Shown here: positions 5,588-58,552 of the stretch, piece after piece
Position numbering within the stretch: position 1 is the stretch's first letter
Layout: each line of letters starts with the position of its first letter
From: Escherichia coli
GTDB lineage: Bacteria; Pseudomonadota; Gammaproteobacteria; Enterobacterales; Enterobacteriaceae
Length of the DNA stretch: 64,000 nucleotides
Assembly: GCF_003790525.1 (NCBI RefSeq)
Contig: NZ_CP033635.1
Strand: one strand, 5' to 3'
Made by a program: the position numbers and the translations under genes
The notes under the pieces: generated by a model
Seen by the model: only the letters and a program-made list of their open reading frames with translations
Database searches by the model: none
What the model was told of the DNA's origin: nothing

Positions 5588-6808
5588 TTAACCCTGCAAC
5601 AGACGAATCAACAAAGAACCGTTATACATCGCGTCTTTTACTAGCGCAGCCCCTGCCATCGTACCCTGGTTAGAAAATTGAGTACTCTCAACGCTAATGT
5701 GCTGACTATACGCAGGAAGGGCCTGCTGACGGATGCTGTCCGAGATGACCGGGAAGAGGATATCTGCCGCTTTACTTAACGGTGAGCCAATCAGTATTTT
5801 TTGTGGGTTAAATAAATTCACCATGATGGCAAGAATGCGCCCGACATGCGCGCCCACCCCGGTAATGATGTCTTTTGCCAGTAGATCGCCGCGCAATGCC
5901 GCCTGACACAATGAGTCCACGGTTAACGGCTGTCCATGTAACATCGAGCTCATGGATTGATTGAGACGCAGCTGTGCCAGCTCAAGAATACTGTCCACAC
6001 TGGCGATGGTTTCGAGGCAGCCGTGATTCCCGCAATAACAGCGTTTCCCATACGGGTCGACCTGCGTGTGACCTATTTCCACGAGGCTACTGCTGCCGGC
6101 GTGTAGCAGATGACCATCGGTAATGACGCCCGCCCCCACGTTGTGATCGATAACCACCTGAATCACATCGCGCGCCCCGCGTGAGGCACCAAACAAGGCC
6201 TCTGCCATCGTCCATGCGCTGATATCATGCTGGATATAAACCGGTACGCCGGTATGCTGCTCCAGCGCCTCGCCGAGCGGCATCTCTTTTACATCCTCGT
6301 AGAACGGCATGCGATGTACAATGCCATTTTCCGTATCAATAATTCCCGGCAAGGTTATGGCAATCGAAGTTAGACGCTCAAGTTTTTTCTGGTGGCGGAT
6401 AAAAAACTGATCGATATGGGAAATGATACGATCCAGCAATGGTGAGTCATCTTTTAACGCCAGTTCCTGCGCCTCCTCCACCACCAGTTTGCTGCTCAGA
6501 TCGCGCAGAGCAAGGAAAATCTCCCCGCGACTAATGCGCAGAGAAAGATAGTGCCAGGCTTCAGTTTCAACCACCAGCCCCACCGCCGGACGGCCACGGT
6601 TCCCCGCTTCTTTGATTTCCAGCTCTTGCACCAGGTGTGCTTCGAGCATCTCACGGACAATTTTAGTGATACTGGCAGGAGCCAGTTGCGCCAGACGGGA
6701 AAGATCGATACGCGAGACTGGACCAAGCTGATCAATCAGGCGATATACCGCGCCCGCGTTGGTCTGCTTTATTTGATCAATGTGCCCAGGCTGGTTTTCA
6801 GCAACCAC
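5588..6808 (-). CDS. mlc: ROK-family global repressor of PTS/sugar genes (Mlc/DgsA)
   Basis: 406 aa, GTG start, N-terminal wHTH plus ROK Cys motif CYCGNHGC. Confidence 0.95.
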   Translation of the reverse strand: MVAENQPGHIDQIKQTNAGAVYRLIDQLGPVSRIDLSRLAQLAPASITKIVREMLEAHLVQELEIKEAGNRGRPAVGLVVETEAWHYLSLRISRGEIFLALRDLSSKLVVEEAQELALKDDSPLLDRIISHIDQFFIRHQKKLERLTSIAITLPGIIDTENGIVHRMPFYEDVKEMPLGEALEQHTGVPVYIQHDISAWTMAEALFGASRGARDVIQVVIDHNVGAGVITDGHLLHAGSSSLVEIGHTQVDPYGKRCYCGNHGCLETIASVDSILELAQLRLNQSMSSMLHGQPLTVDSLCQAALRGDLLAKDIITGVGAHVGRILAIMVNLFNPQKILIGSPLSKAADILFPVISDSIRQQALPAYSQHISVESTQFSNQGTMAGAALVKDAMYNGSLLIRLLQG

Positions 6809-11746: not shown

Positions 11747-12157
11747 TGTCCTTCTCCTGCAAGAGAATTATTTTAATTTTCGCTTAATTCAGCGAAACCA
11801 AAGTAAAGTGGTCAAGCCCCGCGCATAGCGCAAGCTTAAGCAGGAGAAAGGACTAAAGCGCGTTGCGCCAGTGCTGCTCACCTACGAGCAAGATAGTGGA
11901 TGAGGTACGAAGATGGGTAAATGTAGAAAATAACGTCCTGAACAAATTGTCCATAATATTACAATTATCCGCAGTGTTGCTTCTCGTCATCGCGGATGAT
12001 AATTGTCCTCGGTAGTTGAACACGCCTGATTTGTATCATAGCTTAAGAATTAACTCAAAATATTTTCACTTCTTTACCTGAGCGGTTTGATTTTCGTTAT
12101 GATGACGGAGCGAAAAAGACATTATTATTAGCAAAGGAAGAAAAAACGGGGACAAGC

Positions 12158-12322
12158 ATGGCAAAGCCGATCATCACGCTCAATGGCCTAAAAATCGTCA
12201 TTATGTTGGGAATGCTGGTCATTATTCTCTGCGGTATCCGTTTTGCCGCCGAGATCATCGTGCCGTTTATTCTCGCATTATTTATTGCTGTTATATATAA
12301 CTTATTTCGCTTAACTAATTGA
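12158..12322 (+). pseudogene. tqsA: tqsA 5' fragment (AI-2 exporter). The first ~46 codons are native, then 8 island-encoded codons and a stop.
   Basis: [45 protein letters not shown] matches the remembered TqsA N-terminus. The frame leaves tqsA sequence at 12294/12295. Confidence 0.9.
12286..12294 (+). repeat. attL core (TGCTGTTAT)
   Basis: Identical 9-mer at 23720..23728. The two tqsA halves rejoin in frame across it (..[11 protein letters not shown]..). Confidence 0.8.
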
Positions 12323-12365
12323 TTTAATTAAATAATTTGCACTACAAAAAGTGCCAAAAATCGCA

Positions 12366-12423
12366 AATTAACTACACCATTAACTACACCGTTCGGCGCA
12401 CTGTATGAAACAACGTGGAACAA
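12366..12423 (+). repeat. Arm module, left end: AATTAACTACACC ATTAACTACACC, then 19 nt, then ACAACGTGGAACAA
   Basis: The same two-part module recurs in the same orientation at 23567..23624, next to int. Probable arm-type Int/RDF binding sites. Confidence 0.6.
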
Positions 12424-13466
12424 ATAGACACAAGCGGCAGGCTATACCGTTATCATTTTTCAGCTATCCGTCATGAAGCTGGTGGATGATCACGGATAAC
12501 CAGGCATCTACAGCGCCTTAAAAAGCTGAACCCGACAAACATTTCTGCTTATCGGGTCCGATCGCTCTTTCTACTCGTGGCAGATGAGTTTACTAGGAAG
12601 GGGGGAACATTGTATCAGGCTATCCCCTTTCTGTGCTGATTCGGCTGGTGAATGATCTACTTGGGGCACTACACTTTTCGGATAGTGCGGGTATCCGGTT
12701 TTCTGCCTCATCGAATTTTAAGCCTTCTGACGGCCTGTATATCATTTCCTGTGGAGTTGCCGCCCTGATAGCGAATACTGCGGCAGCATGTGATTTACCC
12801 CCCGTTCTGTTGATGTTTGATGTGGCTGGTTGATGTGCTGCCATGTTTTCCGCCAATGGTGGAAAAGCCCACCAGCGCAACGCAGGACGCATAAAACCAT
12901 TGCGATGACTCTGGACGCAAAACCACGTTTAACGATGTTTTGCACTGAACCAGAATACTGTTCGTTTTTGTCTCGATGTCCGTACGTATTACGTCCGCAC
13001 CTAATCCGGCATCATGCCCACCAGCGTAACGCATTTTTTTAATTTCGTGGCTGTGCGTCCACCAGCTACGCCGGAATGGGGTATTCCGTTTCAACGGAAC
13101 AGGTATGACGAACATAATCGCACCTTCTCCCGAAAACGGTGCGACCTGCATCATCGAAATGGTGATTCAGCTACTCGGCGATTTTCACCATTCAGAATCT
13201 GGCGGGTGAGTTATCCAGCTTCCACCAATGGGGGATTCTGGAACAATCAACGGGTTACGCCTTATCAGCAAAAAAGCACATCAACTGTAAAGGAAATCGT
13301 TATGGTTGCTGGTGGGCTGCGTCACCATCATGGTGATGATGCTGTCCAGTCAGCCGGAACGGTTGAACAGGGTGGCTATGGGTCACTCTGTTGTGCGTTA
13401 TTTGCGTGATCCTGGTACGGGGTGACTATCTTTCAGATAGTCGGTTGCCTGGTTACACGAAAAAAT
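12424..13466. other. ORF-poor, Chi-rich segment at the integrase-distal end of the island
   Basis: Only short, mutually overlapping ORFs (131 aa or less) in all six frames. Five Chi octamers: + strand at 12478 and 13308; - strand at 12869, 13018 and 13059. 18-bp direct repeat GCCCACCAGCG(C/T)AACGCA at 12867 and 13016. Confidence 0.6.
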
Positions 13467-13838
13467 TTACTTCCTGCGTTTATCCTGCTTTGTATGCCCG
13501 TGCTGAATGCCCCGCAGTGGATCTTCTTTTTTCAGGTCGATCCCCATGTCCGTTAGTGTTTTTGTGGCGGCGGTTCTTATGGCACAAATCAGGTCTCTTT
13601 CCGGTTCCCGGGTTATGGTTGCCTTCCGGATGCATGCCGTTCGTCGTTCCGTTACATACTGACGCGCTTCATCACTTGCCGCCTGTTTCAGTAACTCACC
13701 CCAGCGATTAGCCGCCCGTCGCCATAAACCTTTCGCTTCCAGTTCTTCCGCTTTGTCATCATGCACCATAAGCATAATCCCATTGATACCTGTTAACTCT
13801 GAATGGTTGGTTTCTGTTCTTTTGATAATTTCCCGCAT
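13467..13838 (-). CDS. PerC-family transcriptional regulator (copy 2)
   Basis: Core MVHDDKAEELEAKGLWRRAANRWGELL is the PerC/Pch signature and parallels the paralog at 17352..17624. The internal ATG at 13769 (100 aa) may be the true start. Confidence 0.7.
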   Translation of the reverse strand: MREIIKRTETNHSELTGINGIMLMVHDDKAEELEAKGLWRRAANRWGELLKQAASDEARQYVTERRTACIRKATITREPERDLICAIRTAATKTLTDMGIDLKKEDPLRGIQHGHTKQDKRRK

Positions 13839-13840
13839 AG

Positions 13841-13872
13841 CTTATTGTATGACAGTACTGTCCCACAATAAG
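13841..13872. promoter_or_regulatory. 32-bp nested palindrome in the divergent perC2 / orf96 control region
   Basis: CTTATTGTatGACAGTACTGTCccACAATAAG. Overlaps the aaggag RBS of the 13884 ORF. Confidence 0.5.
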
Positions 13873-13883
13873 GAGTTGCACGC

Positions 13884-14174
13884 ATGAGAATGACTAGGCA
13901 CAAAAAACAGATTCTTGAACTCTACAAACCTGAGTATCGCGATTGGGTGCGGGTGGAGGCCGGAGATCCGCCTTTTGATGTTCGTGGTGTGACAGTGCTG
14001 CTCTATGGTTCCGAATATCGGCGATATCACATAGAGGCAACACGAAGGACGCTAAACGCTATGGTTCGTGATAAGTTGCTGGAGCGTGTGAAAGTCCGTG
14101 AGCCACGTTTTGATGTGCGTATTGGTGGCGATGGTGCGCATTGCACGGTAATCCGCTATGGCCTGGTAAGGTAA
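13884..14174 (+). CDS. Hypothetical protein, 96 aa (island cargo)
   Basis: ATG preceded by aaggag. No family recognised. Confidence 0.6.
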   Translation: MRMTRHKKQILELYKPEYRDWVRVEAGDPPFDVRGVTVLLYGSEYRRYHIEATRRTLNAMVRDKLLERVKVREPRFDVRIGGDGAHCTVIRYGLVR

Positions 14175-14204
14175 GCCATCGGGTAAATCAGATGATTAAA
14201 TCAC

Positions 14205-14226
14205 CAGAATGTAAATTTACATTCTG
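14205..14226. terminator. Perfect 22-bp palindrome between convergent ORFs
   Basis: cagaatgtaaatttacattctg. No clear T-tract. Confidence 0.4.
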
Positions 14227-14276
14227 CCAGCCACCAGCTACCCTCCTCAAAATTGAGGACCCTTTTTATCAACTGG

Positions 14277-14558
14277 TTACCGCCGCAACCGTTCCGGCTT
14301 CTTCCACTGATAAGTGTTTTTCGCGCTCTCCTGATACATCGCCACGCGTCGACGGTATGCCAGCAACTCTAGTACTCTGATTCGTATGTCGCGCATATCC
14401 ACGCCGTTAAGCTCAATACCATCACGGCGCATTACATCAGCAACAACACGCACATAATTTTCGGCGGTCACGCTGTCCGGCTGCGTGGCCTGTTCGTCAT
14501 GCTGCTGGCTGATTCCGGTAACGCGGCGGATTAATCCCAGTAGTTCGACTTCTGTCAT
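14277..14558 (-). CDS. Hypothetical protein, 93 aa
   Basis: Track ORF 14277..14756 runs through the cos/cosB DNA. The internal ATG at 14558 (MTEVELLGLIRRV...) lies just past cos copy 1. Confidence 0.55.
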   Translation of the reverse strand: MTEVELLGLIRRVTGISQQHDEQATQPDSVTAENYVRVVADVMRRDGIELNGVDMRDIRIRVLELLAYRRRVAMYQESAKNTYQWKKPERLRR

Positions 14559-14591
14559 TGTGCCCCCATCGCTCTGATAGTCTGGTGTCGT

Positions 14592-14656
14592 CGGGTCCTT
14601 TCCGGCATGTGGACCCGTTACGGGGCGTCGACCTCGCGCGTTTTCACTATTTATGA
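14592..14656 (+). other. Lambda-like cosQ-cosN, copy 1; predicted 12-nt cohesive end GGGCGTCGACCT at 14623..14634
   Basis: GGGTCCTTTCCGG..CCGTTACGGGGCGTCGACCTCGCGCGTTTTCACTATTTATGA closely parallels my recollection of lambda cos (..GGGTCCTTTCCGGTGATCCGACAGGTTACGGGGCGGCGACCTCGCGGGTTTTCGCTATTTATGAAAA). Confidence 0.8.
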
Positions 14657-14672
14657 AAATTTTTCGGGATCC

Positions 14673-14769
14673 ATGTCCGGTTTCTCTGCAAGTTAACCAT
14701 ATGAAAAATATAAAAACATGCTTTCCATGAACCGGACATGCGCAAAAAACAGACACTAAAACCGGACAT
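14673..14769 (+). repeat. cosB-like array: three AACCGGACAT sites (14673..14682 inverted, 14730..14739, 14760..14769) around an A/T-rich spacer
   Basis: Position just after cosN, and the one-inverted plus two-direct layout, mimic lambda R3-I1-R2-R1 with a different site sequence. Confidence 0.6.
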
Positions 14770-14837
14770 CGAACCAGTTAACCGAAAGTGTGCACAAATC
14801 ACATTCATTGCTGCGAGTGATTAACAAGTTATCGGCT

Positions 14838-15272
14838 TTACTGTTCTGTATCGGCTGATTGCTCCATGCTGGCACGGCGAACGCTTACGGCATGACGCCA
14901 CCCAGCCAGAAAGCCAGCCATTTTATTTCGTGCCTTGCTCACATCTTCCGGTGAATAGCCGTAAATATGCAAACCTTCATCAAATCGATGTTCTGTTTCT
15001 TCACTGGAGTACTCGTCACGCTCAGATGAAAGCAGCCTCGCAAACATAATTTTTTCCAGCGCACTGGTTTCTACGTGATATCCGATGGTCTGAAGATGGC
15101 TTTTACCTGAATACCAAAGCAATGTATGCCCGATGTGATAACCGCCAGACTTTCCGCGATCCGCATTAAGATACGGCATCCCCTGTTTGGTCCATGCGCG
15201 AATAGTGGTTCTGTTAACCTTGAAATGTTCAGCTATTTCCTGCTGACTTACAAAACAAGCTTTATCAATCAT
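14838..15272 (-). CDS. Nu1-like small terminase / packaging-specificity protein (N-terminal wHTH)
   Basis: VSQQEIAEHFKVNRTTIRAWTKQGMPYL aligns by eye with lambda Nu1 VNKKQLADIFGASIRTIQNWQEQGMPVL. Starts 67 nt downstream of cos copy 2, the lambda cos-Nu1 arrangement. The C-terminal half is not recognisably Nu1-like. Confidence 0.75.
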   Translation of the reverse strand: MIDKACFVSQQEIAEHFKVNRTTIRAWTKQGMPYLNADRGKSGGYHIGHTLLWYSGKSHLQTIGYHVETSALEKIMFARLLSSERDEYSSEETEHRFDEGLHIYGYSPEDVSKARNKMAGFLAGWRHAVSVRRASMEQSADTEQ

Positions 15273-15339
15273 AATGTTACCTTAACTGCATGGTTAAATA
15301 TCAATCAAGTGGTGGTGGTGTCACCTTCACGGAAAAACG

Positions 15340-15404
15340 TCATAAATAGCGAAAACGTGCGAGGTCGACGCCCCGTAACGGGTCCACATGCCGGAAAGGA
15401 CCCG
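15340..15404 (-). other. Lambda-like cosQ-cosN, copy 2 (inverted); cohesive-end sequence at 15362..15373
   Basis: Reverse complement of 14592..14656 with 2 mismatches in 65 nt. No AACCGGACAT sites between it and the Nu1-like start. Confidence 0.8.
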
Positions 15405-15429
15405 CAAAAAAAGCCGGATTTCTCCGGCC
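15405..15429 (-). terminator. Rho-independent terminator after the capsid operon
   Basis: Minus strand reads GCCGGA-gaaa-TCCGGC followed by TTTTTTT. Nearly identical hairpin at 17322..17345. Confidence 0.7.
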
Positions 15430-15502
15430 TTGTCTCAGATGGTTTTCAGTATGCGATAGATGTCGCCGTCATCGCCCTGGTTTGTGCCATCGTTCCCCCT
15501 GC

Positions 15503-15838
15503 TTATCGGGCCAGCGGCTGAACGGATACGCCGGAACCCGCAAAGGCGGCGCATTTTTTCGCATCGGTGTCGACGCTCTCAGGCCAGTTAACGGCGGCAA
15601 TATTGAATATCCCCGTCTTGTAACACTGTGCTGATTTCTGCTTTGACGTGTCCACAGGGTACGAGGTCAGATAAACAGCCTTGCCAGATTCCTTACCATC
15701 CCACGCCTTAAACTCGCCATTGTCTGCCAGCATCAGCGGGGTAAATTCCTGAATAACGCCAGCATCAGCGGCAAAATGTACCAGCGTCGTGGATACCTGT
15801 TGGCTGCCTGAAAATAACTCAATGTATGGAGCGTCCAT
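15503..15838 (-). CDS. Head decoration protein (lambda gpD-like)
   Basis: 111 aa. TPLMLADNGEFKAWDG and AAFAGSGVSV parallel gpD TPLMLDTSSRKLVAWDG and TAFAGTAISIV. Confidence 0.8.
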   Translation of the reverse strand: MDAPYIELFSGSQQVSTTLVHFAADAGVIQEFTPLMLADNGEFKAWDGKESGKAVYLTSYPVDTSKQKSAQCYKTGIFNIAAVNWPESVDTDAKKCAAFAGSGVSVQPLAR

Positions 15839-15849
15839 AGAATCCCCCG

Positions 15850-16905
15850 TTAAGCAATTTTGACGGTAACAAATTTGCGAATATCTGCCGGTACAGGCTG
15901 CGGTGCGCTGTGCGTCTGCACGTACTCAATCGCCGGATCGCCGTCCTCAATCCAGTTTTTCGGGTAGTACATGTTTTGCGTTGCGCCCGTTCTTACCGCT
16001 TCCTGATCCATAATCGCACCATATGCCACCAGCCCTTTATTGTTGGTGTTACCCAGGACCAGCAAATCAGGCTCAAGGAAATATTTTTCGGTCCCGTCGC
16101 TGTCAGTGTATTTGCCGGAATAGACGATAAGGGCCAGATCACCAAGATAGCCTTTAAAGCTCACCACTTCGCCCAGGTTTTTACAGGCCAGCTCGGCGGC
16201 GGATTCTGATCCACGGGAAAGATCGTACAGTTCACGGAATTTTTTAAAGCTGCGTAATGTGCGCCATACCTCACCGCCCATAATCATGACGTTGGCGGGG
16301 CAACCTGCCTGATCAGCATAAAGCTCGATGTCATAGATTGGGTCGTGCATGTCTTTATCCTGCTGGGACCATTTTTTACCACTGGCCTGCTGTATGATGC
16401 AGTTTTCCGGTATTTTCCAGTCGATTTCATAGCGTTCTATGCCTTCGCCCTCAATGATGTTTTTTCCGGTCGTTACCGCATTCACCGCCAGCCATTCCAC
16501 GCGCGCCTTAATGGCGTTTATCTGGCGGCGCATGTTGCCAGTAATCAGGCGCATACGGCGGTAAGTTGGATCGTTAAGCTGTGCCGGATCTTCTCCATCC
16601 ATGCGCATGATGGTCTTTGTTGGATCGATTTCGTGCTTTGGCTTCATGTAGCCTGGTTTAATCGTGCTGGTTTCGTACCCTTTATCGCGCTGGACCTGAC
16701 TACCCACCATAGGAGAACAGAACGCTGACATCGTAACCTCTTCAATGTCCAGGGTGTCCAGCATGATGTTTTGGGTGTTGAAGGTCGCCACGTTCGGGAA
16801 AAACAGCGTGGTAAACAGCGGACTAAATTTATATTCCGAAATATCCCCGCGATTCAGGTACGCGAAAAGCTGGTTAGTTGTAAGTGCCTTTGCTTTGCCT
16901 GTCAT
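15850..16905 (-). CDS. Major capsid protein (lambda gpE family)
   Basis: 351 aa. PGYMKPKHEIDP and YYPKNWIEDGDPA parallel gpE PGYVKPKHEVNP and RYPKNWVTTGDPA. Confidence 0.9.
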   Translation of the reverse strand: MTGKAKALTTNQLFAYLNRGDISEYKFSPLFTTLFFPNVATFNTQNIMLDTLDIEEVTMSAFCSPMVGSQVQRDKGYETSTIKPGYMKPKHEIDPTKTIMRMDGEDPAQLNDPTYRRMRLITGNMRRQINAIKARVEWLAVNAVTTGKNIIEGEGIERYEIDWKIPENCIIQQASGKKWSQQDKDMHDPIYDIELYADQAGCPANVMIMGGEVWRTLRSFKKFRELYDLSRGSESAAELACKNLGEVVSFKGYLGDLALIVYSGKYTDSDGTEKYFLEPDLLVLGNTNNKGLVAYGAIMDQEAVRTGATQNMYYPKNWIEDGDPAIEYVQTHSAPQPVPADIRKFVTVKIA

Positions 16906-17111
16906 TATTCACCTCCGTGAACCTGATTGATACCCAGCGCCGCACGCAAATAGGTGCGCACCTGCCAGCCTGTTGACGGCTCAACCATCGCCAGCGGATC
17001 AAGTCCTGCCGCAATGCCTGCTTTTACATTCTGCTGGTGGCGTTCCTTGAGCGCCTCCACGATGTCGGGGCTTATGTAGACCGTCACCCCGCCTTTTTTC
17101 TCTTCTGCCAT
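16905..17111 (-). CDS. Hypothetical 68-aa protein, first gene of the capsid operon
   Basis: Stop overlaps the MCP start (TAATG). aagaggaa RBS. Confidence 0.6.
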   Translation of the reverse strand: MAEEKKGGVTVYISPDIVEALKERHQQNVKAGIAAGLDPLAMVEPSTGWQVRTYLRAALGINQVHGGE

Positions 17112-17145
17112 AGTCAGAAATTCCTCTTTGACTTAAAAAATCATA

Positions 17146-17195
17146 ACTGGATGTTCATCCAGTCCTGATTATAATCATGATTGCATTTTGCGCAA
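17146..17195 (-). promoter_or_regulatory. Candidate sigma70 promoter of the capsid operon with an overlapping 18-bp palindrome (CTG-N10-CAG)
   Basis: Minus strand: TTGCGC (17195..17190), 16 nt, TATAAT (17173..17168), then ACTGGATGAACATCCAGT (17163..17146). Confidence 0.5.
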
Positions 17196-17321
17196 CAATA
17201 TTGAGTTACGTTGCAAATTATGAAATGATTATCCCGATCATGTGTGTCAGTTCACCATAAAAAACCTCGTATACAAAAGCCCCATAAGCCCCCTGTGACC
17301 TTATCGGGCTTTTTTTAGGCG

Positions 17322-17345
17322 TAAAAAAGCCGGATTGCTCCGGCT
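17322..17345 (-). terminator. Rho-independent terminator after perC copy 1
   Basis: Minus strand reads AGCCGGA-gcaa-TCCGGCT followed by TTTTTT. A plus-strand hairpin with a T-run sits back-to-back at 17286..17317. Confidence 0.7.
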
Positions 17346-17351
17346 GTGTGC

Positions 17352-17624
17352 TCACTTCTGCGGGTAGTTGCGCCATATTGCTTTGCCAATACCAGCTATC
17401 CCCATTTGTTTTTCAGTGCGATTAACTGACCTTTTCAGAGCGCCTAAATCATCCGGCGGCTCCGGTGGCCTCTGTGCCTTACGGATACATTCCGCGCGAC
17501 GCATTGCCACCTGTTCGCGCTCCTTGTCTGTCTCCACCAGCCTCATAACTTCACCCCATCGCGCCGCCGCCCTCCGGTAAAAGCCTTTTGCCTCGAGTTC
17601 CTCCGCTATGCGGTCATGTACCAT
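17352..17624 (-). CDS. PerC-family transcriptional regulator (copy 1)
   Basis: 90 aa from MVHDRIAEELEAKGFYRRAAARWGEVM. Start is 11 nt after the ssb stop with a ggggg RBS. Track ORF 17352..17744 overlaps ssb. Confidence 0.75.
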   Translation of the reverse strand: MVHDRIAEELEAKGFYRRAAARWGEVMRLVETDKEREQVAMRRAECIRKAQRPPEPPDDLGALKRSVNRTEKQMGIAGIGKAIWRNYPQK

Positions 17625-17634
17625 CGTCACCCCC

Positions 17635-18045
17635 TCAGAACGGAATATCATCACCGTAAGGGTCATCGCCTCCCGCTGGTGGCTGATTACCCTGTGTGCC
17701 TGTGGTTTTGCGTCTGTTCCCGCCAGGACGTGCCGCACGGGCACTGATTACGCTGTCTGCAATAACCTGCCAGCCCTGCCGCGTTTCCCCGTTCTGTCCG
17801 GTCCACTGGCTGACCTGCATCGTGCCGGATACGCTGGCAACGTCGCCTTTTTGATGTTTAGCCAGAAAGTCGGCCTGTTTGCCAAATGCGATGACCGATA
17901 ACCATAACGTCGCCTGTCCGTCCTGTGCCTGGCCGCATGGTAAAGATACCGCCATACGCGCCAGCGTCATCGGTGTACCCTTACTGGTCTGTTTTACCTG
18001 CGGGTCGTCCACCAGCCGCCCGTAAGCTGCTATCTGTGCTGTCAT
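17635..18045 (-). CDS. ssb: Single-stranded DNA-binding protein
   Basis: 136 aa with an OB-fold N-terminus, a Gly/Pro/Gln linker and the acidic tail DDIPF. Confidence 0.85.
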   Translation of the reverse strand: MTAQIAAYGRLVDDPQVKQTSKGTPMTLARMAVSLPCGQAQDGQATLWLSVIAFGKQADFLAKHQKGDVASVSGTMQVSQWTGQNGETRQGWQVIADSVISARAARPGGNRRKTTGTQGNQPPAGGDDPYGDDIPF

Positions 18046-18284
18046 GCTGTCTGCTCTCCGGTTTTAACGTTGATGGTTGTTACCTGTTCTGCTTCGGCAA
18101 TATCCCGCTCTGTCAGCGTGGCAAAGTTTGCCGCCGTCGTTGTCATGAATGCGCTTATCAGTTCGGGATGTGCTTTCGCGTATCCTTCCCCTGTGTTGCG
18201 GTCGATGATTTTTATCGCCACCCTCAGCCAGTGCTCTGTAAGGTCAATGGCGCGGTGATCTGTCTTTTTGTGGCTTACCTTCAT
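18042..18284 (-). CDS. Hypothetical protein, 80 aa
   Basis: ATGA overlap with the ssb start. No family recognised. Confidence 0.6.
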   Translation of the reverse strand: MKVSHKKTDHRAIDLTEHWLRVAIKIIDRNTGEGYAKAHPELISAFMTTTAANFATLTERDIAEAEQVTTINVKTGEQTA

Positions 18285-18287
18285 GAT

Positions 18288-18656
18288 TTACTCCAGAGTA
18301 CCGCTATTGCTGCTGTCGTTAACCGGATACCAGGCAAATACCATCGATTCACCACAGTGAACAAACTTCTTATCCGGCAGATAAAGGCACTCGCACATTC
18401 CCTCATCAGGACTATGCGGACTCATGCCCAGCTCACTGGTCAGCACGGGTAAGATTTCGCGGCAGGTGTTCCCCGCACCGAAATAATCAACCTCACAAAG
18501 CGCCCATGCAGCAATCGGGCTGTACCATTCCGTGCCGTCGTCGTCTTTGAACTTAGCCCACCAGCCAGGAAGGGCAGTTGATATGCTCAGTGTTTCAATT
18601 TCAGTGTTCATAAATTTACCTTCGGTATTTTGTCCTGCTGTTCGATTTTTATTCAT
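18288..18656 (-). CDS. Hypothetical protein, 122 aa (alternative start at 18611)
   Basis: First gene downstream of the iteron region. No family recognised. Confidence 0.6.
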   Translation of the reverse strand: MNKNRTAGQNTEGKFMNTEIETLSISTALPGWWAKFKDDDGTEWYSPIAAWALCEVDYFGAGNTCREILPVLTSELGMSPHSPDEGMCECLYLPDKKFVHCGESMVFAWYPVNDSSNSGTLE

Positions 18657-18660
18657 TGCT

Positions 18661-18860
18661 CACCATCTCTCACTTTTACTACTCACTTTTTAAAGCGTCT
18701 CGCTTCGTCTCACTTGAGATTTTTGTGTTTTGTATGTGCATGTTTCATAAGTGTTTTTTCACTGCTCACTTTTGAGCATGTATACAGGTGAGAAAGTGAG
18801 TAATTGTGTTAATATTTTGTAAAAACCTCACCATTACTCACTTTTACTACTCACTTTTTA
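18661..18860. repeat. Putative origin of replication: CTCACTT iterons flanking an A/T-rich core
   Basis: CTCACTT at 18669, 18682, 18709, 18765, 18837 and 18850, with an inverted copy at 18794. 32-bp direct repeat at 18661..18692 and 18829..18860. Immediately 3' of the initiator gene. Confidence 0.7.
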
Positions 18861-20264
18861 CAGTGGTCCTACATCATCACCATCAATGTAAATCACGGCG
18901 TCTTTTTCCAGTTTGGCTAACCATCGCCGCATATTTTTCACGTCATACCCAAGCCGTTTCATGTCATCACGTAACAGCGGGATCGTGCACTTGTCGCCGT
19001 TCTGTGTGCGTGAACGGATGCACCCCCATAGCGCGGTATGGTTTTCCGTCTTGTTGCCTGCCTCCTCGATGCGCTCCAGTTCAGCAGGGGCGCGGGGAAC
19101 GTCAATCACCACCATGGACACAATTTCTTCGCCATCTGTATCGGTGAACACCTCCACGCTTTTAAGGTCGTATGCACTCTCTTTTGGCTCCTCTGCGTCC
19201 TTCATCTTCGTACACGCCGCAACCAGTGCTGTAACGTCTGAATTTTCCCTGCTGATTCGGTACTCTGCATCAAGCGCGGCACGGAATGCACTGGAACCAC
19301 GCGCCCCCTTTGTTTCATCCTTGCCGGAATGGTGAACCACCAGCACCGTGGCCCCTGTGGCCTGCTTTATCGCGTCACACCCCTGGATAAATGCGCCCAT
19401 ATCACGGGAATCATTTTCATCATTCCCACCAAAGCAACGGGCCAGCGTGTCGATCACAATCAGCCGCACATTTTCGCCCGTTCTGCTCTTAACAAGTCCG
19501 GCAGTCCTGATAACCTGCTCCACATAGTCAGGCGATGCAGGGAAAACAGGCGCGTTAATGATGCACAAATCTGTAACCACCTTGTCGTGGGTTATCTCCC
19601 ACGCCTTAACGCGGCGTTTTACGCCCATGCTGCCTTCACCAGCGATATAGATAACCGCACCCTTACTTACCCTGCGGCCTCCCCATGCCATACCTGTGGC
19701 AACATGGCACGACCAGGAAATGGCGAGGAACGATTTATAAGAACCGCTGGCCCCGTAGGTGCTGCATAATGACTCAGCCGGAATAAGCCCCTTAATGACG
19801 TAGCTTTGCTGCGCATCGAATCCCTCAGAACCCCATGAGATGGGAAGTGTGATTTTTCGCTTTCCGCCATTCATGACCAGGCTTTCCCCTCTCTCCCATG
19901 TTTCCCGTAGTCGTGGTAGCTGGTCGCTCCAGTCCTCCAGCAGTTCGAAATTTTCAGAAAGTAGCCGCGCCTCCTGGACTCCGGCGATCGCCAGTTTTGT
20001 GGCAATGGTCAGCATCTGCATATCGTCCAGGTTTCCGGCGCGTATGACCTTTACCCTGTATCGTCCTTCATCAACAATCTGTAAGTTGTCCAGTTCGCTT
20101 AACTGATAACGGCCCAGATAAACCGGAGGGATGGGATCGCCTGCTTTTTTGGCCTGTGCAATCATGTAATGTTCTGCAAAGGAGTGAGCATTATCACCCG
20201 CAAAAATAACCGCCTCAGTGTGTTTATCTTTCGGTAACAGTTTTACGTTCGGTGCAAGTTTCAT
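18858..20264 (-). CDS. Replication initiator, RecA/DnaB-like (AAA_25-type) ATPase with a C-terminal wHTH; Pri-Rep analogue
   Basis: 468 aa. Walker A GASGSYKS, Walker B LIVIDTLARCF, VLVVHHSGKDETKGARGSSA. Confidence 0.8.
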   Translation of the reverse strand: MKLAPNVKLLPKDKHTEAVIFAGDNAHSFAEHYMIAQAKKAGDPIPPVYLGRYQLSELDNLQIVDEGRYRVKVIRAGNLDDMQMLTIATKLAIAGVQEARLLSENFELLEDWSDQLPRLRETWERGESLVMNGGKRKITLPISWGSEGFDAQQSYVIKGLIPAESLCSTYGASGSYKSFLAISWSCHVATGMAWGGRRVSKGAVIYIAGEGSMGVKRRVKAWEITHDKVVTDLCIINAPVFPASPDYVEQVIRTAGLVKSRTGENVRLIVIDTLARCFGGNDENDSRDMGAFIQGCDAIKQATGATVLVVHHSGKDETKGARGSSAFRAALDAEYRISRENSDVTALVAACTKMKDAEEPKESAYDLKSVEVFTDTDGEEIVSMVVIDVPRAPAELERIEEAGNKTENHTALWGCIRSRTQNGDKCTIPLLRDDMKRLGYDVKNMRRWLAKLEKDAVIYIDGDDVGPL

Positions 20265-20548
20265 TTCTTACCCCCTGCGACCAGCATTTCACGGATTTTG
20301 CGGATATAACTTGCAGCACGTTTCTGATTAACGGCTTTACGATGGCCCACCAGCGTGAAATCACGCCGGAACTGATAAACAGGCATAACGCAGTCATATT
20401 CGTAGCCTTCACGGCGGTAAGTGATGCGACGTTCCTCCACGCCCTTAATCATTACCGTGCCGCCGTAGTTATCACGGAAAATATCGCCGGGACGGATTTC
20501 AGGACGAGCGGGGCCGCTGGCATTAACGCCAGAATTTTTATTTTTCAT
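20261..20548 (-). CDS. Small conserved phage/satellite protein (DUF4222-like by recollection)
   Basis: 95 aa. ATGA overlap with the initiator start. Confidence 0.6.
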   Translation of the reverse strand: MKNKNSGVNASGPARPEIRPGDIFRDNYGGTVMIKGVEERRITYRREGYEYDCVMPVYQFRRDFTLVGHRKAVNQKRAASYIRKIREMLVAGGKK

Positions 20549-20553
20549 GTTTT

Positions 20554-20781
20554 TTATTCTCCGGTGTGCTGTTCTTTATATCTGTCGTGAATTGCCATCA
20601 CTGTATTTAATTCATTAATAACAGCCGTTAATAGCGTACGCACGGCAGAAAACATCATTGAATCAGATTCATCGCCACTTTCCTGCACATCAATTAAATT
20701 AAGTAGTAATGCGTCCATTTCCTTTGCGCGGATTAATGCCTTTTCACAATGAAAAATAACACCAAAGGGTATTTTATTCAT
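20554..20781 (-). CDS. Hypothetical protein, 75 aa
   Basis: ATG at 20781 overlaps the icd-like stop (ATGAATAA). Track ORF starts 14 codons earlier. Confidence 0.55.
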   Translation of the reverse strand: MNKIPFGVIFHCEKALIRAKEMDALLLNLIDVQESGDESDSMMFSAVRTLLTAVINELNTVMAIHDRYKEQHTGE

Positions 20782-20971
20782 GACTCCCCTCCTGACGGAT
20801 ACGGGCGGCGAATACAGCGACACAACCGGACGGGCAACGGTTACGCGCTTCGCGTTCCGTCCAGGCGGTCACGTGGATAATTTGAGATTCTCCGGCACTC
20901 AGTGCCAGAAAACGCCACACAAAGGCGGTTTGTGTGTGCGCTAGTCGTGGGGTATGCTGTGTTCCAGCCAT
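20774..20971 (-). CDS. Icd-like (P4 host cell-division inhibitor-like) protein, 65 aa
   Basis: MAGTQHTPRLAHTQTAFVWRFLALSAGESQIIHVTAWTEREARNRC..VFAARIRQEG fits the remembered Icd-like pattern. aggag RBS. It forms the C-terminal part of the implausible 308-aa track ORF. Confidence 0.65.
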   Translation of the reverse strand: MAGTQHTPRLAHTQTAFVWRFLALSAGESQIIHVTAWTEREARNRCPSGCVAVFAARIRQEGSHE

Positions 20972-21056
20972 AATCGTTACTCCTGTTAACGGTTTGGTTA
21001 GACGCCCTGCATGTGTTACAGCACTGCGGGGCGTTGTCTTTTTAACGGCTTTCGTG

Positions 21057-21104
21057 ATAGGGTGTACACCTATCAAGCAAAAACATAACGCTATAGGTGT
21101 ACAC
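21057..21104. promoter_or_regulatory. Operator-like sites sharing TAGGTGTACAC in the divergent icd / RHH control region
   Basis: ATAGGGTGTACACCTAT (21057..21073, near-palindrome) and ATAGGTGTACAC (21093..21104, abutting the RHH ATG). The minus-strand TTGACA hexamer overlaps the RHH start. Confidence 0.5.
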
Positions 21105-21299
21105 ATGTCAACAGTTATTAAGCGAGATAAAAAACCAAAGGGAACAGGAAAAGCCCCCCCATTCCATATGCGAATAGCTCCAGAACTGAAAGAGCAGTTT
21201 GATAATGAGGCCAGCAATGATGGGGTAAGCCTAGCCAACTGGCTTAAAGAGTTGGGGCGCGCCGAACTAAAGCGACGCGGCATTGAACCTAAAGGCTGA
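21105..21299 (+). CDS. Ribbon-helix-helix (Arc/CopG/HicB-antitoxin-like) DNA-binding protein, 64 aa
   Basis: FHMRIAPELKEQFDNEASNDGVSLANWLKELGRAELKR is a typical RHH fold signature. Opposite strand to the rest of the island. Confidence 0.7.
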   Translation: MSTVIKRDKKPKGTGKAPPFHMRIAPELKEQFDNEASNDGVSLANWLKELGRAELKRRGIEPKG

Positions 21300-21302
21300 T
21301 GT

Positions 21303-21428
21303 ATGACTGAAAAGCAGACCGATAACAAACTTTCTCTACCAGAGAATAAACCAGCAGGCTTCTTACCAAGAAAAATCCTTGATGAGATCAAACGCCGCCA
21401 GCGCCGCAAGGCCAAAGAGCAGGAATAG
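21303..21428 (+). CDS. 41-aa basic micro-protein, co-oriented with the RHH gene
   Basis: ATG 4 nt after the RHH stop. MTEKQTDNKLSLPENKPAGFLPRKILDEIKRRQRRKAKEQE. Followed by a terminator. Confidence 0.4.
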   Translation: MTEKQTDNKLSLPENKPAGFLPRKILDEIKRRQRRKAKEQE

Positions 21429-21459
21429 CCCACCAGCAAGCCAGCACACTGATCACATT

Positions 21460-21488
21460 GGCCACCGTGACAGGTGGCCTTTTCTTTG
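21460..21488 (+). terminator. Rho-independent terminator of the RHH operon
   Basis: GGCCACC-gtgaca-GGTGGCC followed by TTTTCTTT. Confidence 0.7.
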
Positions 21489-21540
21489 CCCGTTATCCGG
21501 CAATTGTGGCGCTTCGCCACACGGTTGATATAATTCCCCT

Positions 21541-21611
21541 GCTCAGATTCATTTTTTGCGCGGCAGGTAAATTGTTCAGAAAGGCGGCTCCTTATCGGGG
21601 CCGCTTTTTTT
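21541..21611 (+). ncRNA. Candidate ~70-nt small RNA, antisense to the alpA-to-icd leader
   Basis: Extended -10 TGaTATAAT at 21526..21534. Hairpin plus T7 terminator at 21580..21611. No ORF. Confidence 0.3.
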
Positions 21612-21752
21612 ATGTCTGAAAAACCGCGATTTTGTTGTTTTTCAGTTTCACCAGGCCGAACGAAGCCCCGCCCATGTTCGGGCGTATATCCAGTCTTCAT
21701 GGTTAAATCTCTGTATTAGTGGATGGGTGGCGGCTGTGTGCCGCCAGTCTTT

Positions 21753-21941
21753 TTAGTGAACTGCCTCGCAGCTTTCCTTCCATGCCAGAACTTCGGATAA
21801 AGACCAGCCAACGGAACGACCGCCCAGCTTACGCCGTGATGGGAATTGTCCGGCCTTTTCCAGGCGGTAGCGGCATGAGCGGCTAAGGCCTGTTAGCTTT
21901 TCGCATTCTTTTTCACGTATAAAGCGATCAGTGCTTAACAC
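21753..21941 (-). CDS. alpA: AlpA-family (MerR-like HTH) phage regulatory / excision-control protein
   Basis: 62 aa, GTG start. REKECEKLTGLSRSCRYRLEKAGQFPSRRKLGGRSVGWSLSEVLAW is the AlpA signature. Confidence 0.8.
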   Translation of the reverse strand: MLSTDRFIREKECEKLTGLSRSCRYRLEKAGQFPSRRKLGGRSVGWSLSEVLAWKESCEAVH

Positions 21942-22100
21942 TATTGCCCCCTTTCGTTTCTTAAAGAGTTATTTCGTGTTCTATTGCGTTGGGATGTGTC
22001 TGATTGTGTCAGGGTGATTCAGAGTTGGCAAATGTTGGTGGCGGGTATTTTACAGAAACGGGGTGATTTTAATAAAAATCATTTTAATTCAGTATTATGC

Positions 22101-22133
22101 AAAGGCATAAAATCTCGTTTTATGCCTTTTTTC
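22101..22133 (+). terminator. Strong hairpin plus T-run in the int-alpA spacer
   Basis: AAAGGCATAAAA-tctcg-TTTTATGCCTTT followed by TTT. Confidence 0.55.
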
Positions 22134-22233
22134 TCACTATTTAAAGCGTTATTCGCTAATGTATAAAAAACCAGTTGAGCATTAAAAATCAGCAACTTAT
22201 AAATCTGTATACTTTTTGACCTCTTGTTCGTGG

Positions 22234-22267
22234 TTGTTTCACGTTGTTGTGTATTGTTGCACGTTGT
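22234..22267 (-). repeat. Two more ACAACGTGNAACAA motifs (22234..22247 and 22254..22267), 20 bp apart
   Basis: Same 14-mer as in both arm modules (12410 and 23611), here in the opposite orientation just downstream of int. Confidence 0.5.
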
Positions 22268-22315
22268 ATCTGTGCACTTATCCAGTATGCGCATACTGAA
22301 AAAACACGAAAAAAA

Positions 22316-23566
22316 TTATTTTCTTCTGGCTACTGGTAGCGTGGTTACGTTTTCATGTGCTCCCGCCAGTATCTCCAACCGCTCCACCCACATATCCAGC
22401 GCATTGCGTTTCGCATCCAGATAACGGGAATGATTATAAACTCGCTGCATTCCTGGCATCTGGTGGCCTGTAAGCTGCTCCACGACGTGAGGATCCACGC
22501 CTAAATCGTTCAGCATCGTTGTAAAGGTGCGCCGGATGTCATGCAGTGACCATTGAGGGTGTTTTAGCCTCCTGTGCGCTAATCTGCCGTACTGCGATAC
22601 GCTGGCCTCCTGTTTCACTTCCCCCAGTAATAAGCCCGTGTGCCTGTTCTGCTCCACCAGCCGCGTGACGAACGGCAGGATCGCTTCCGGTATGGGCCGG
22701 AATATTGCGACCTTCGTTTTGCTGTGCTCCTTCGGAACGGTCCAGAGCATTTCCGTGAAATCCCACTCCCCGATCTCCGATAACCTCAGTTCTACCGTCC
22801 TGGCTCCGAAGACAATCAGGAGGCGGATTAGTGCGACGTAGTAAGGGGAAAATATTTTTTTGTCCAGTGCCTGCAATAATTCGCCCAGTTCTTTGGTGCT
22901 TAAGACACGTTCGCTTATATCCGGTTTTTTCCCAACGTCCGCCACGTTCAGATCGTCCAGAACGTTGCTGATTGCATAGCGCCGCCTCCGGCAAAACTTA
23001 AGCGCCTGTTTGCACGCCTGTAGCACGAATCCGGCAGTAACAGGCGTTCGCTTTGCCACCCGATCAAAACAGGCCAGCCAGTGCCGTAGCTCGCATTTAT
23101 CCAGCGGCATAGCACCAATGTGCTGTATTACGTGATTATTAAGTCGCCTTTTCAGGGCGATATAATCCACGCGGTTTTCCTTTACGTAAGACTCAAGCCA
23201 GTAGGTGAGCGCATCTCCAACCGTTACAGGCTTTAACGCTTCCTGCATGGTGTAATTCATCTCATGACGTGGATTTTTCCCCTCAGCCAGCCATGCGCGA
23301 CACTGGGCGGCTTTTTCCCTGGCTGATTTCAGGCTCAGATCAGGATAATTTCCCAGCTTAATACGTTCCGGTCGTGTCTCTCTTCCCGTTCCGGCCCTGT
23401 AAGTGAAATACCAGGTTAAAAGGCCGCTGGTTGAATGCCTGACGCTCAGATTTCCACCGTCATTAAGAAAGGCTGTTTTTTGGGCGGGTGTGCCGTTGAT
23501 TTTCCTTAGCTGTGTATCGCTCAGCTTGTTAAGTGCTCTGGTCATAATTTTGAATCCGGTCATCAC
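22316..23566 (-). CDS. int: Tyrosine recombinase, P4-type integrase (N-terminal arm-binding domain plus catalytic domain)
   Basis: 416 aa. LSDTQLRK N-terminus, catalytic HDIRRTF...GHQ..MQRVYNHSRY. Alternative start at 23545. Confidence 0.9.
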   Translation of the reverse strand: MMTGFKIMTRALNKLSDTQLRKINGTPAQKTAFLNDGGNLSVRHSTSGLLTWYFTYRAGTGRETRPERIKLGNYPDLSLKSAREKAAQCRAWLAEGKNPRHEMNYTMQEALKPVTVGDALTYWLESYVKENRVDYIALKRRLNNHVIQHIGAMPLDKCELRHWLACFDRVAKRTPVTAGFVLQACKQALKFCRRRRYAISNVLDDLNVADVGKKPDISERVLSTKELGELLQALDKKIFSPYYVALIRLLIVFGARTVELRLSEIGEWDFTEMLWTVPKEHSKTKVAIFRPIPEAILPFVTRLVEQNRHTGLLLGEVKQEASVSQYGRLAHRRLKHPQWSLHDIRRTFTTMLNDLGVDPHVVEQLTGHQMPGMQRVYNHSRYLDAKRNALDMWVERLEILAGAHENVTTLPVARRK

Positions 23567-23624
23567 AATTAACTACACCATTAACTACACCGATCGTTGC
23601 ACAAAGGGCTACAACGTGAAACAA
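23567..23624 (+). repeat. Arm module, right end (AATTAACTACACCATTAACTACACC, then 19 nt, then ACAACGTGAAACAA)
   Basis: Begins 1 nt upstream of the int start codon. Direct repeat of 12366..12423. Confidence 0.6.
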
Positions 23625-23719
23625 GCTGGAACAAGAAAAATCACAAATTTGTTTATAATCAAAAACATAATGCACAACCTGAAACATTATGAAACGGCAA
23701 AAAACACTAATTGATAAAG

Positions 23720-23728
23720 TGCTGTTAT
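23720..23728 (+). repeat. attR core (TGCTGTTAT)
   Basis: Identical to 12286..12294. tqsA sequence resumes here. Confidence 0.8.
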
Positions 23729-24626
23729 TCTTAACCCGCTGGTGCAACACATGGTCCGCTGGCGAGTGCCGCGTGTACTGGCGGTGTCGATTTTGATGAC
23801 CATCATCGTGATGGCGATGGTGTTGCTGTTAGCTTATCTGGGTTCCGCGCTCAACGAGTTGACGCGGACGTTACCGCAATATCGCAACTCTATTATGACG
23901 CCGCTGCAAGCGATTGAACCGTTGTTGCAACGCGTAGGGATTGATGTCTCAGTTGACCAACTGGCGCATTACATTGATCCGAACGCGGCAATGACGTTGC
24001 TCACCAACTTATTGACGCAGTTATCTAATGCCATGTCATCAATCTTTTTATTGCTGCTGACGGTGCTGTTTATGTTGCTCGAAGTGCCACAATTGCCCGG
24101 AAAATTTCAGCAAATGATGGTGCGTCCGGTTGAAGGGATGGCGGCGATTCAGCGTGCGATTGACAGTGTGTCTCATTATCTGGTGCTGAAAACAGCCATC
24201 AGCATCATCACCGGCCTGGTCGCCTGGGCGATGCTCGCCGCACTCGATGTTCGCTTCGCTTTTGTCTGGGGATTGCTGGCCTTTGCGCTTAATTACATCC
24301 CTAATATTGGTTCAGTTCTCGCGGCAATCCCCCCTATCGCTCAGGTACTGGTGTTTAATGGCTTCTACGAAGCGTTGCTGGTGCTGGCGGGATATCTGCT
24401 AATTAATCTGGTCTTCGGCAATATTCTGGAGCCGCGCATCATGGGACGTGGGCTGGGGCTTTCCACATTGGTGGTATTTTTGTCGTTGATTTTTTGGGGA
24501 TGGTTGTTAGGACCGGTGGGTATGCTGCTTTCCGTGCCGTTAACAATTATTGTCAAAATTGCGCTTGAACAAACAACGGGAGGTCAAAGCATCGCCGTTC
24601 TGTTAAGCGATCTCAACAAAGAGTGA
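23720..24626 (+). pseudogene. tqsA: tqsA 3' fragment (codons ~44 to the end). A 294-aa ORF from GTG 23742 stays open.
   Basis: ..[26 protein letters not shown].. continues the remembered TqsA sequence. In-frame TAA at 23715. Confidence 0.9.
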
Positions 24627-45959: not shown

Positions 45960-46547
45960 TCAGGATGCGGTTAATATACCGCCAATCATCGCGCGTAATC
46001 CCTGAGCAAACGACGCTTCACGCGCCAGATCTTCCGCTTCGATATCGGCCAGTACACCGTAGGTCAGATCCAGCAGTAAACGTGAAGTCATTGCCGTGTT
46101 GATATCTGGGCTTATCTCGCCTTTTTGCTGGGCATCACGCATCCGCTGGGCAACAAATTCCGTGATCGTCATATGCTTATTTTTAAGCATGGCGGCGACC
46201 TGTGGGTTACGCATCCCTTCCGCCATAATTTCGACCACCAGCGCCCGTTGCCCAAAGGCTTCATGGGTGAGAGAGACAATAGACTCGACCATATAGTCAA
46301 CGAAATGAATCCCTTCAATCGGTTCCCGGAAACGGGCCAGCGCCCTCTCCTGGTCCTGTAAGATAATCGCCTGAATCAGGGCTTCTTTGGAGATGAAATG
46401 GTGATAGAGCGTCCCGGGACTAATGGCGCAAGATTTACAGATGGCTTTCATCGAGGCACTGTGAAATCCATTTTCTGAAAAAATCTCTCTGGCAGCATTG
46501 AGGATCCGGGTCCGTGTCGGTTGTGCTTCAGTTTGCATGTTATCCAT
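45960..46547 (-). CDS. uidR: TetR-family repressor of the uid operon
   Basis: 195 aa. The K-12 protein as I recall it has one extra N-terminal Met; here that codon is ACG. Confidence 0.9.
   Translation of the reverse strand: MDNMQTEAQPTRTRILNAAREIFSENGFHSASMKAICKSCAISPGTLYHHFISKEALIQAIILQDQERALARFREPIEGIHFVDYMVESIVSLTHEAFGQRALVVEIMAEGMRNPQVAAMLKNKHMTITEFVAQRMRDAQQKGEISPDINTAMTSRLLLDLTYGVLADIEAEDLAREASFAQGLRAMIGGILTAS

Positions 46548-55855: not shown

Positions 55856-58552
<2,697 letters not shown>

Follow-up and report, generated by a model that had tools for sequence, protein, structure and literature searches.

Phage-inducible chromosomal islands (PICIs), satellites that depend on helper phages, have been catalogued in the thousands. 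Here we analyze an 11.4-kb insert that interrupts tqsA in a 64-kb stretch of Escherichia coli DNA (contig NZ_CP033635.1), which we call the window. Among the closest described systems is EcCICFT073, the model Gram-negative PICI, whose genes include c1499 (capsid), c1500 (decoration) and c1503 (the packaging protein RppA) and which has two functional cos sites, cos1 and cos2 (PMC6092414, PMC6739421). In EcCICFT073, helper induction raises alpA expression and AlpA drives the island operon. An RppA dimer binds the Nu1-type TerS of the helper, which blocks recognition of the phage cosB and confers specificity for the cosB of island cos1 (PMC6739421); cos2 is dispensable (PMC6092414, PMC6739421). 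Two other catalogued islands, EcCI042 (11 kb) and EcCIK1516 (11.4 kb), have tqsA as their attachment (att) gene and ATAACAGCA as their att core (Table S1, PMC6092414). The satellite family, the tqsA att site with its 9-bp core, the double cos and the hijacking of packaging through RppA and TerS are all already published.

We conclude with high confidence that the insert is an intact Gram-negative PICI of the EcCICFT073/EcCI042 lineage, integrated in tqsA by its own tyrosine integrase. A preliminary description, made from the sequence alone, had proposed a helper-dependent PICI-like satellite rather than a decayed prophage, and this proposal is upheld by the gene content, the exact tqsA boundaries, the 94-96% identity to EcCICFT073 proteins and the published tqsA att core. 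The insert occupies positions 12295-23728, with a unit length (one core copy) of 11,434 bp, and its two ends are organized as follows:

12158-12294, plus strand: tqsA 5′ fragment of 46 codons, whose reading frame enters the island and stops at 12322 (open reading frame (ORF) list, restoration test)
12286-12294, plus strand: attL core TGCTGTTAT, the reverse complement of the published core ATAACAGCA (Table S1, PMC6092414)
12295-12434, minus strand: P′ att arm, with 94% identity to that of EcCICFT073
22316-23545, minus strand: tyrosine integrase (int), 409 aa (Pfam Arm-DNA-bind_3 and Phage_integrase)
23546-23719, minus strand: P arm of the att site, with arm-type repeats
23720-23728, plus strand: attR core TGCTGTTAT, the second junction copy of the 9-mer
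23729-24626, plus strand: tqsA 3′ part (ORF list, restoration test)

We rebuilt tqsA by joining positions 12100-12294 to 23729-23860 with one 9-mer kept. The resulting 326 nt matched annotated, uninterrupted tqsA at 100% identity in many genomes, and their translation ran in frame through the junction. The island is integrated in codon 46 of tqsA. As the preliminary description had stated, the tqsA frame is broken at 12294/12295 and resumes at 23720, the 9-mer is present at both junctions, and removal of the insert together with one copy restores the frame. The junction 9-mer on its own is weak evidence for insertion; the window contains four copies of TGCTGTTAT (0.5 expected). The rebuilt tqsA sequence is therefore the decisive test, and we searched with it a collection of 5426 complete E. 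coli genomes, 5422 of which matched. The tqsA site was uninterrupted in 5168 genomes, and a query spanning the attL junction (tqsA 5′ part plus island arm) was fully covered in 245, which places an island at exactly this point in ~4.5% of complete E. coli genomes. At most ~9 of the 5422 matching genomes had neither the intact site nor the PICI arm junction. These alignments confirm attB and both junctions. The junction repeat is also conserved in an independent insertion, as the junctions of E. coli 042 carry the same 9-mer next to the diverged sequence of EcCI042. Since a tRNA scan found no tRNA, the island is not tRNA-targeting. Rfam gave no match on the whole window at the gathering threshold; on the island at E ≤ 1, the sole match was to SymR (E = 0.41) and is non-significant.

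The integrase has arm-binding and catalytic domains, an HxxR motif and a C-terminal tyrosine. Each att arm contains two tandem TTAACTACACC repeats (12368-12390 in P′ and 23569-23591 in P), the layout that would be expected for arm-type integrase binding sites. To compare attP with that of EcCICFT073, we aligned window positions 12295-12460 and 23560-23719 with positions 5750-5930 and 17030-17211 of the CFT073 locus. The reconstructed attP arms were ~95% identical, paired TTAACTACACC repeats included, and Int was 94% identical, whereas a block of ~33 nt around the crossover was wholly different and the integration target was tqsA here and ycfD-phoQ for EcCICFT073. This looks like att-site switching by core-cassette replacement, with a near-constant integrase. 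The use of another chromosomal site by a 94%-identical integrase, after a swap of the ~33-nt attP core, is one of two small leads, the other being the role of the rare cargo.

One catalogued att core bears on these repeats. Table S1 of PMC6092414 gives CGGTGTAGTTAATGGTGTAGTTAATT, within an IS110 transposase gene, as the core of EcCIDI14; reverse-complemented, this sequence is the arm-type repeat pair that both arms of the tqsA island carry. The listed core of EcCIDI14 may be arm sequence, or may be a sign of a tandem or nested PICI.

To annotate the insert, we used Pfam, PHROG and NCBIfam, with 20 ORFs scanned by Pfam and PHROG. These hidden Markov model searches agree with the gene content of a satellite. 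From int onward, the regulatory and replication genes are:

21753-21941, minus strand: alpA, master activator or excisionase-type regulator (Pfam Phage_AlpA 5e-18; phrog_2790)
21105-21428, plus strand: opposite-strand small genes, an Arc/HicB/YlcI-like gene and a 41-aa ORF (phrog_228 3.6e-5)
20774-20974, minus strand: Icd-like gene (Pfam, PHROG, NCBIfam)
20554-20823, minus strand: 89-aa ORF
20261-20548, minus strand: DUF4222 gene (Pfam, PHROG, NCBIfam)
18858-20264, minus strand: replication initiator (rep), a RepA-family helicase of 468 aa (AAA_25, RecA fold; Pfam AAA_25 8.5e-43; phrog_2850 3.8e-188)
18657-18857, minus strand: putative replication origin with iterons, directly 3′ of rep
18042-18656, minus strand: two small conserved ORFs (80 aa, phrog_1231; 122 aa, phrog_27268)
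17635-18045, minus strand: ssb, single-stranded DNA-binding protein (Pfam SSB 3.7e-16; phrog_44)
17352-17624, minus strand: PerC-family transcriptional activator, an accessory gene (Pfam PerC 4.5e-39; annotated in CM2)

We compared the island with the features by which Fillol-Salom et al. 2018 (PMC6092414) define Gram-negative PICIs. It sits at a specific att site, one that temperate prophages do not use (5168 genomes intact, 245 with a PICI arm); it is transcribed in one direction from int and alpA, without a CI/Cro divergent switch; at the sequence level, it has its own replication initiator with an iteron origin directly 3′; and its 11,434 bp fall within the range of ~8-15 kb, without tail, lysis, portal or TerL genes. 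All genes from int to a 93-aa gene near the cargo end lie on the minus strand except the Arc/YlcI-like pair, which is also present in EcCICFT073, and two plus-strand small ORFs lie in the cargo. The Arc/YlcI-like gene sits between alpA and icd, is annotated at the same position in strains CM2 and CFT073, and is conserved in position in EcCICFT073 and EcCI042. In the putative origin, (A)AGTGAG iterons lie in two sets, one on either side of an AT-rich stretch just past the rep stop codon. Of the 11 AGTGAG/CTCACT copies that the island contains, seven are clustered in the ~220 nt of this region. This arrangement fits the origin layout of Gram-negative PICIs, in which the iterons lie 3′ of rep (Fig. 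2a, PMC6092414).

The Pfam and PHROG scans of the 20 insert ORFs gave no match to portal, protease, TerL, tail, lysis or CI/Cro genes, the absences that the preliminary description had reported. Only int, rep and the capsid gene encode at least 300 aa, besides a mechanical 308-aa ORF (20774-21700, minus strand), so there is no room for a TerL or portal gene. The 308-aa ORF has family support for its last 66 codons (Icd-like) alone, its remainder overlaps the opposite-strand Arc/YlcI-like gene, and it is probably an ORF-calling artefact. We also applied the SatelliteFinder definition of PICI Type A (de Sousa et al. 2023, PMC10085698) by hand to the Pfam and PHROG matches. All five core components were present (integrase, alpA-type regulator, primase/replicase, capsid-morphogenesis gene and TerS-like gene), and the components that the definition forbids (tail, holin, portal, head-tail connector and attachment) drew no match.

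The remaining conserved genes and sites form a capsid and packaging block:

16905-17111, minus strand: 68-aa conserved gene upstream of the capsid gene (phrog_3255)
15850-16905, minus strand: lambda gpE-like major capsid gene, c1499 homologue (Pfam Phage_cap_E 2e-49)
15503-15838, minus strand: lambda gpD-like head decoration gene, c1500 homologue (Pfam HDPD 4e-17; phrog_49)
15273-15404, minus strand: cos1, with a cosN-like 12-mer at 15362-15373 (minus strand) and a PICI-specific cosB between cosN and the rppA start
14838-15272, minus strand: predicted rppA, 144 aa, redirecting-phage-packaging protein that mimics the DNA-binding domain of TerS (EcCICFT073 has a 144-aa protein of 96% identity at its c1503/RppA position)
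14592-14669, plus strand: cos2, with the cosN-like GGGCGTCGACCT at 14623-14634, in the opposite orientation to rppA
14277-14558, minus strand: 93-aa conserved PICI gene, just after cos2 in the direction of island transcription, as in EcCICFT073 (phrog_1561)

The gpE-like and gpD-like genes are hallmarks of the PICI family, and the capsid protein is 95% identical to that of EcCICFT073. The cosN-like GGGCGTCGACCT, which has one mismatch to lambda cosN, occurs twice in the island. The preliminary description had recorded both cos sites, which are indeed present, but had not remarked that they are inverted relative to one another and flank the Nu1-like gene: they form the arms of a 78-nt inverted repeat (14592-14669 and 15327-15404) that is 91% complementary. 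Both align base for base with cos1 and cos2 of EcCICFT073, and in both islands the sites are inverted with a spacing of 739 nt. Alignment also showed that cosQ and cosN are common to the island and to a lambdoid prophage cos and that cosB has diverged. On these alignments, the two sites are orthologues of the published cos1 and cos2 (PMC6092414, PMC6739421). The island cos1 is nearly identical to the EcCICFT073 cos1, the site recognized by RppA-TerS (PMC6739421). A further match to lambda cosN, with one mismatch, at position 46190 lies in the core chromosome and was treated as chance.

The gene between the cos sites had been described as Nu1-like. A winged helix-turn-helix (wHTH) gene is present there, but its product is not a terminase subunit. 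In addition to its identity with the EcCICFT073 protein, the 144-aa protein matches the RppC crystal structure entries 6HLK/6HN7 (E = 4e-32), and its match to Nu1/TerS is weak, N-terminal and confined to the first ~55 residues. Rpp proteins are 144-153 aa long, have an N-terminal wHTH like the TerS DNA-binding domain and a conserved R21-T22, and are encoded between cos1 and cos2. The island protein agrees in length, wHTH and position, and it retains R21-T22, which are needed for cos1 recognition (PMC6739421). By homology, the 144-aa protein is RppA and is predicted to bind TerS. Apart from this protein, the minus-strand order given in the preliminary description (int, alpA, an icd-like gene, a RecA-like initiator, iterons, two small ORFs, ssb, perC, the capsid genes, cos, the Nu1-like gene, a second cos and a cargo end) is confirmed by the Pfam, PHROG and NCBIfam matches and the sequence scans, with two changes: of the three small ORFs listed between icd and rep, we found two, and the opposite-strand Arc/YlcI-like gene is added between alpA and icd.

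From the 94-96% identity of Int, cos1 and RppA to their EcCICFT073 counterparts, we infer that the island would be capable of induction and packaging by a helper phage, of high-frequency transfer and of interference with the helper. The following mechanism was shown for EcCICFT073 and is transferred here from that identity of the parts. When a helper with a lambda/phi80-type cos enters the lytic cycle, alpA expression would rise and AlpA would turn on the leftward operon. AlpA and Int would then excise the island at TGCTGTTAT, restoring tqsA, and the RepA-family helicase would fire the iteron origin just downstream of its own gene to give concatemers. An RppA dimer would bind the DNA-binding domain of the helper's Nu1-type TerS, and the resulting RppA-TerS heterocomplex would no longer recognize the phage cosB, recognizing instead the island cosB at cos1. 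Helper TerL would cut the island cosN, and island DNA would enter capsids and tails built by the helper; the simultaneous block to helper packaging would constitute interference. After injection, Int would reinsert the island into tqsA. By our calculation, four units (45.7 kb) would fill a lambda head, and three (34.3 kb) would lie below lambda's usual lower packaging limit.

We weighed this reading against several alternatives. With their counterparts in the CFT073 lambdoid prophage, the capsid protein shares 46% identity and the decoration protein 43%, and cosN and cosQ are lambda-like, as might be seen in a decayed lambdoid prophage that had retained int, a capsid gene and cos by chance. 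We give this explanation almost no credence. The att junctions are precise and both arms carry conserved arm-type repeats, the genes are transcribed in one direction beginning with alpA, the island carries its own replicon and RppA, and neither the block nor its surroundings hold the immunity (CI/Cro), lysis, tail, portal or terminase (TerL) remnants that decay would leave. Moreover, the ~11-kb architecture recurs between the tqsA halves in diverged islands. At all five tqsA loci that we inspected (this one and those of four other genomes with related islands, including 042, STEC434 and TUM1886), the PICIs are bounded directly by the tqsA halves with no adjoining prophage structural genes, and in none of the five does the block continue into portal, tail or lysis genes. 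The preliminary description had named such flanking genes in relatives as the mark of a prophage fragment, and these loci do not bear it. The presence of major capsid and decoration genes could also indicate a capsid-forming PICI (cf-PICI), which would make its own small capsids and steal tails alone, and some tqsA relatives do carry a gene annotated as a head-tail connector and a 180-aa TerS. However, portal, prohead protease, TerL, and head-tail adaptor and connector, by which SatelliteFinder discriminates cf-PICIs from PICIs, are all absent from the insert, and no insert ORF is big enough for a missed TerL or portal. In the near-identical EcCICFT073, interference with lambda persisted when either the capsid or the decoration gene was deleted, and a lambda lysogen with the island gave lysates in which all the packaged DNA was of phage size (PMC6092414). 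We therefore regard a cf-PICI as extremely improbable.

An island that is a PICI by descent could also have lost the ability to be mobilized, leaving a fixed disruption of tqsA, and several observations that weigh against a functional satellite are relevant here. Between the gpD-like gene and cos1, the EcCICFT073, 042, STEC434 and TUM1886 islands have a 414-nt gene, annotated as hypothetical or, in some records, as a head-tail connector, that is missing from this copy (window positions 15485-15493 compared with 15084-15497 of the CFT073 locus). There is no helper prophage in the 64-kb window, the remainder of which is core chromosome; next to the island are the tqsA 5′ part on the mdtJ side and, on the other side, the tqsA 3′ part and pntB. 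The exact variant is found in just three complete genomes. Replication would depend on a RepA helicase (63% identity to that of EcCI042), in contrast to the primase of EcCICFT073, the island that has been tested experimentally, and the excision, replication and transfer of this copy are predicted from sequence comparison. Nonetheless, no truncation or interruption affects int, alpA, rep, rppA, cos1, the iterons or either att arm, and we consider an immobile copy unlikely. An intact, helper-dependent PICI thus remains our preferred interpretation. A lambdoid prophage elsewhere in the source genome that had a GGGCGGCGACCT-type cos and encoded a Nu1-type TerS would be a resident helper.

The sole unusual part of the island is its cargo, which lies between the P′ arm and the 93-aa gene:

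12435-14266, both strands: rare cargo block of 1.8 kb
12795-13115, minus strand: doubtful ORF
13206-13409, plus strand: doubtful ORF
13467-13769, minus strand: second PerC-family gene (Pfam PerC E = 7.6e-23)
13841-13872: 32-nt palindrome CTTATTGTATGACAGTACTGTCCCACAATAAG, between the second perC and the divergent 96-aa ORF
13884-14174, plus strand: 96-aa ORF, with an internal 40-nt repeat at 13946 and 14081

The complete block is present in three of the 5426 complete E. coli genomes (CM2, PKF11 and PKF4) and has no match in the EcCICFT073, 042, STEC434 or TUM1886 islands. PADLOC, Pfam, NCBIfam and PHROG found no defence system or family among the cargo ORFs except PerC. Comparison of the cargo DNA with plasmids and phages gave short fragments alone, the best being 71 nt at 86% identity to the rlfB region of phages P1 and P7. 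This stretch (~12519-12589), which matches the rlfB/rapB region of P1 and P7, overlaps a strong terminator-like hairpin (12559-12528, minus strand). Homologues of the 96-aa ORF form a narrow, unnamed family confined to E. coli, and its AlphaFold model (mean predicted local distance difference test score 48.6) is too poor for a fold search. The palindrome and the 96-aa ORF may be an operator with a small regulator. From position and rarity, one could propose either that the cargo (the second perC, the divergent 96-aa ORF behind the palindrome and the unassigned stretch) is an undescribed regulatory or anti-phage accessory module, or that the tqsA::PICI arrangement is a helper-triggered, reversible switch of autoinducer 2 export. 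We consider either reading a long shot. Such novelty as the island has is in its rare cargo and in what the interruption of tqsA might entail.

The comparison is of practical use for annotation, as the block of hypothetical proteins in RefSeq relatives can be given names such as rppA, cos1/cos2, ori and attL/attR. The tqsA 5′ fragment is annotated in CM2 as "pheromone autoinducer 2 transporter, incomplete"; in the source strain, tqsA is better recorded as interrupted by a mobile satellite than as a pseudogene. Elsewhere in the window, the rsxC coding region contains an internal tandem repeat (58082-58503; 96-nt offset, ~91% identity), seen as self-offset matches to the CM2 locus, which we take to be ordinary rsxC repeat structure.

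Among known satellites, the island shares an int-alpA-replicase left half and helper dependence with capsid-forming PICIs (such as EcCIEDL933) and with P4-like satellites. Unlike cf-PICIs, it has no portal, protease, TerL or connector set, and a P4-like reading was rejected, as psu/delta/sid capsid-size genes and alpha primase were not among the Pfam and PHROG family matches. Against strain CM2, the chromosomal flanks are 99.98-99.99% identical and the island is 99.1% identical, indicating that the island changed faster than the host chromosome or recombined. Within it, a segment of ~190 nt (20592-20779) stands in for ~500 nt of CM2, in the small-ORF region between DUF4222 and icd, which suggests recombination between PICIs.

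Other islands at the same tqsA site differ more. The STEC434 island is of the primase type, and that of TUM1886 carries a 180-aa TerS and a connector-annotated gene. Of the catalogued tqsA PICIs, our direct comparison covered EcCI042 and left out EcCIK1516, which is from a draft genome. EcCI042 has the same tqsA attB and the same 9-bp core, its packaging block is 94% identical in nucleotide sequence, and its replication protein, at 63% identity, is of the same RepA-family helicase type. The rep/ori region, at 76% nucleotide identity, and the small ORFs are mosaic between the two. The 414-nt gene is found in EcCI042 but not here, and the 1.8-kb cargo here but not in EcCI042.

Relative to EcCICFT073, the replication module is unrelated (RepA helicase here, primase there) and the 1.8-kb cargo is extra. 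The rest is a nucleotide mosaic, with identities of 89% for int-alpA, 92% from ssb to the gpD-like gene, 94% for cos1-rppA-cos2 and 94% for the P′ arm. At 11.4 kb, the two islands are the same size, and they share a single gene order: int, alpA, icd-like, DUF4222, rep, ori, ssb, perC, the 68-aa gene, gpE-like, gpD-like, cos1, rppA, cos2 and the 93-aa gene.

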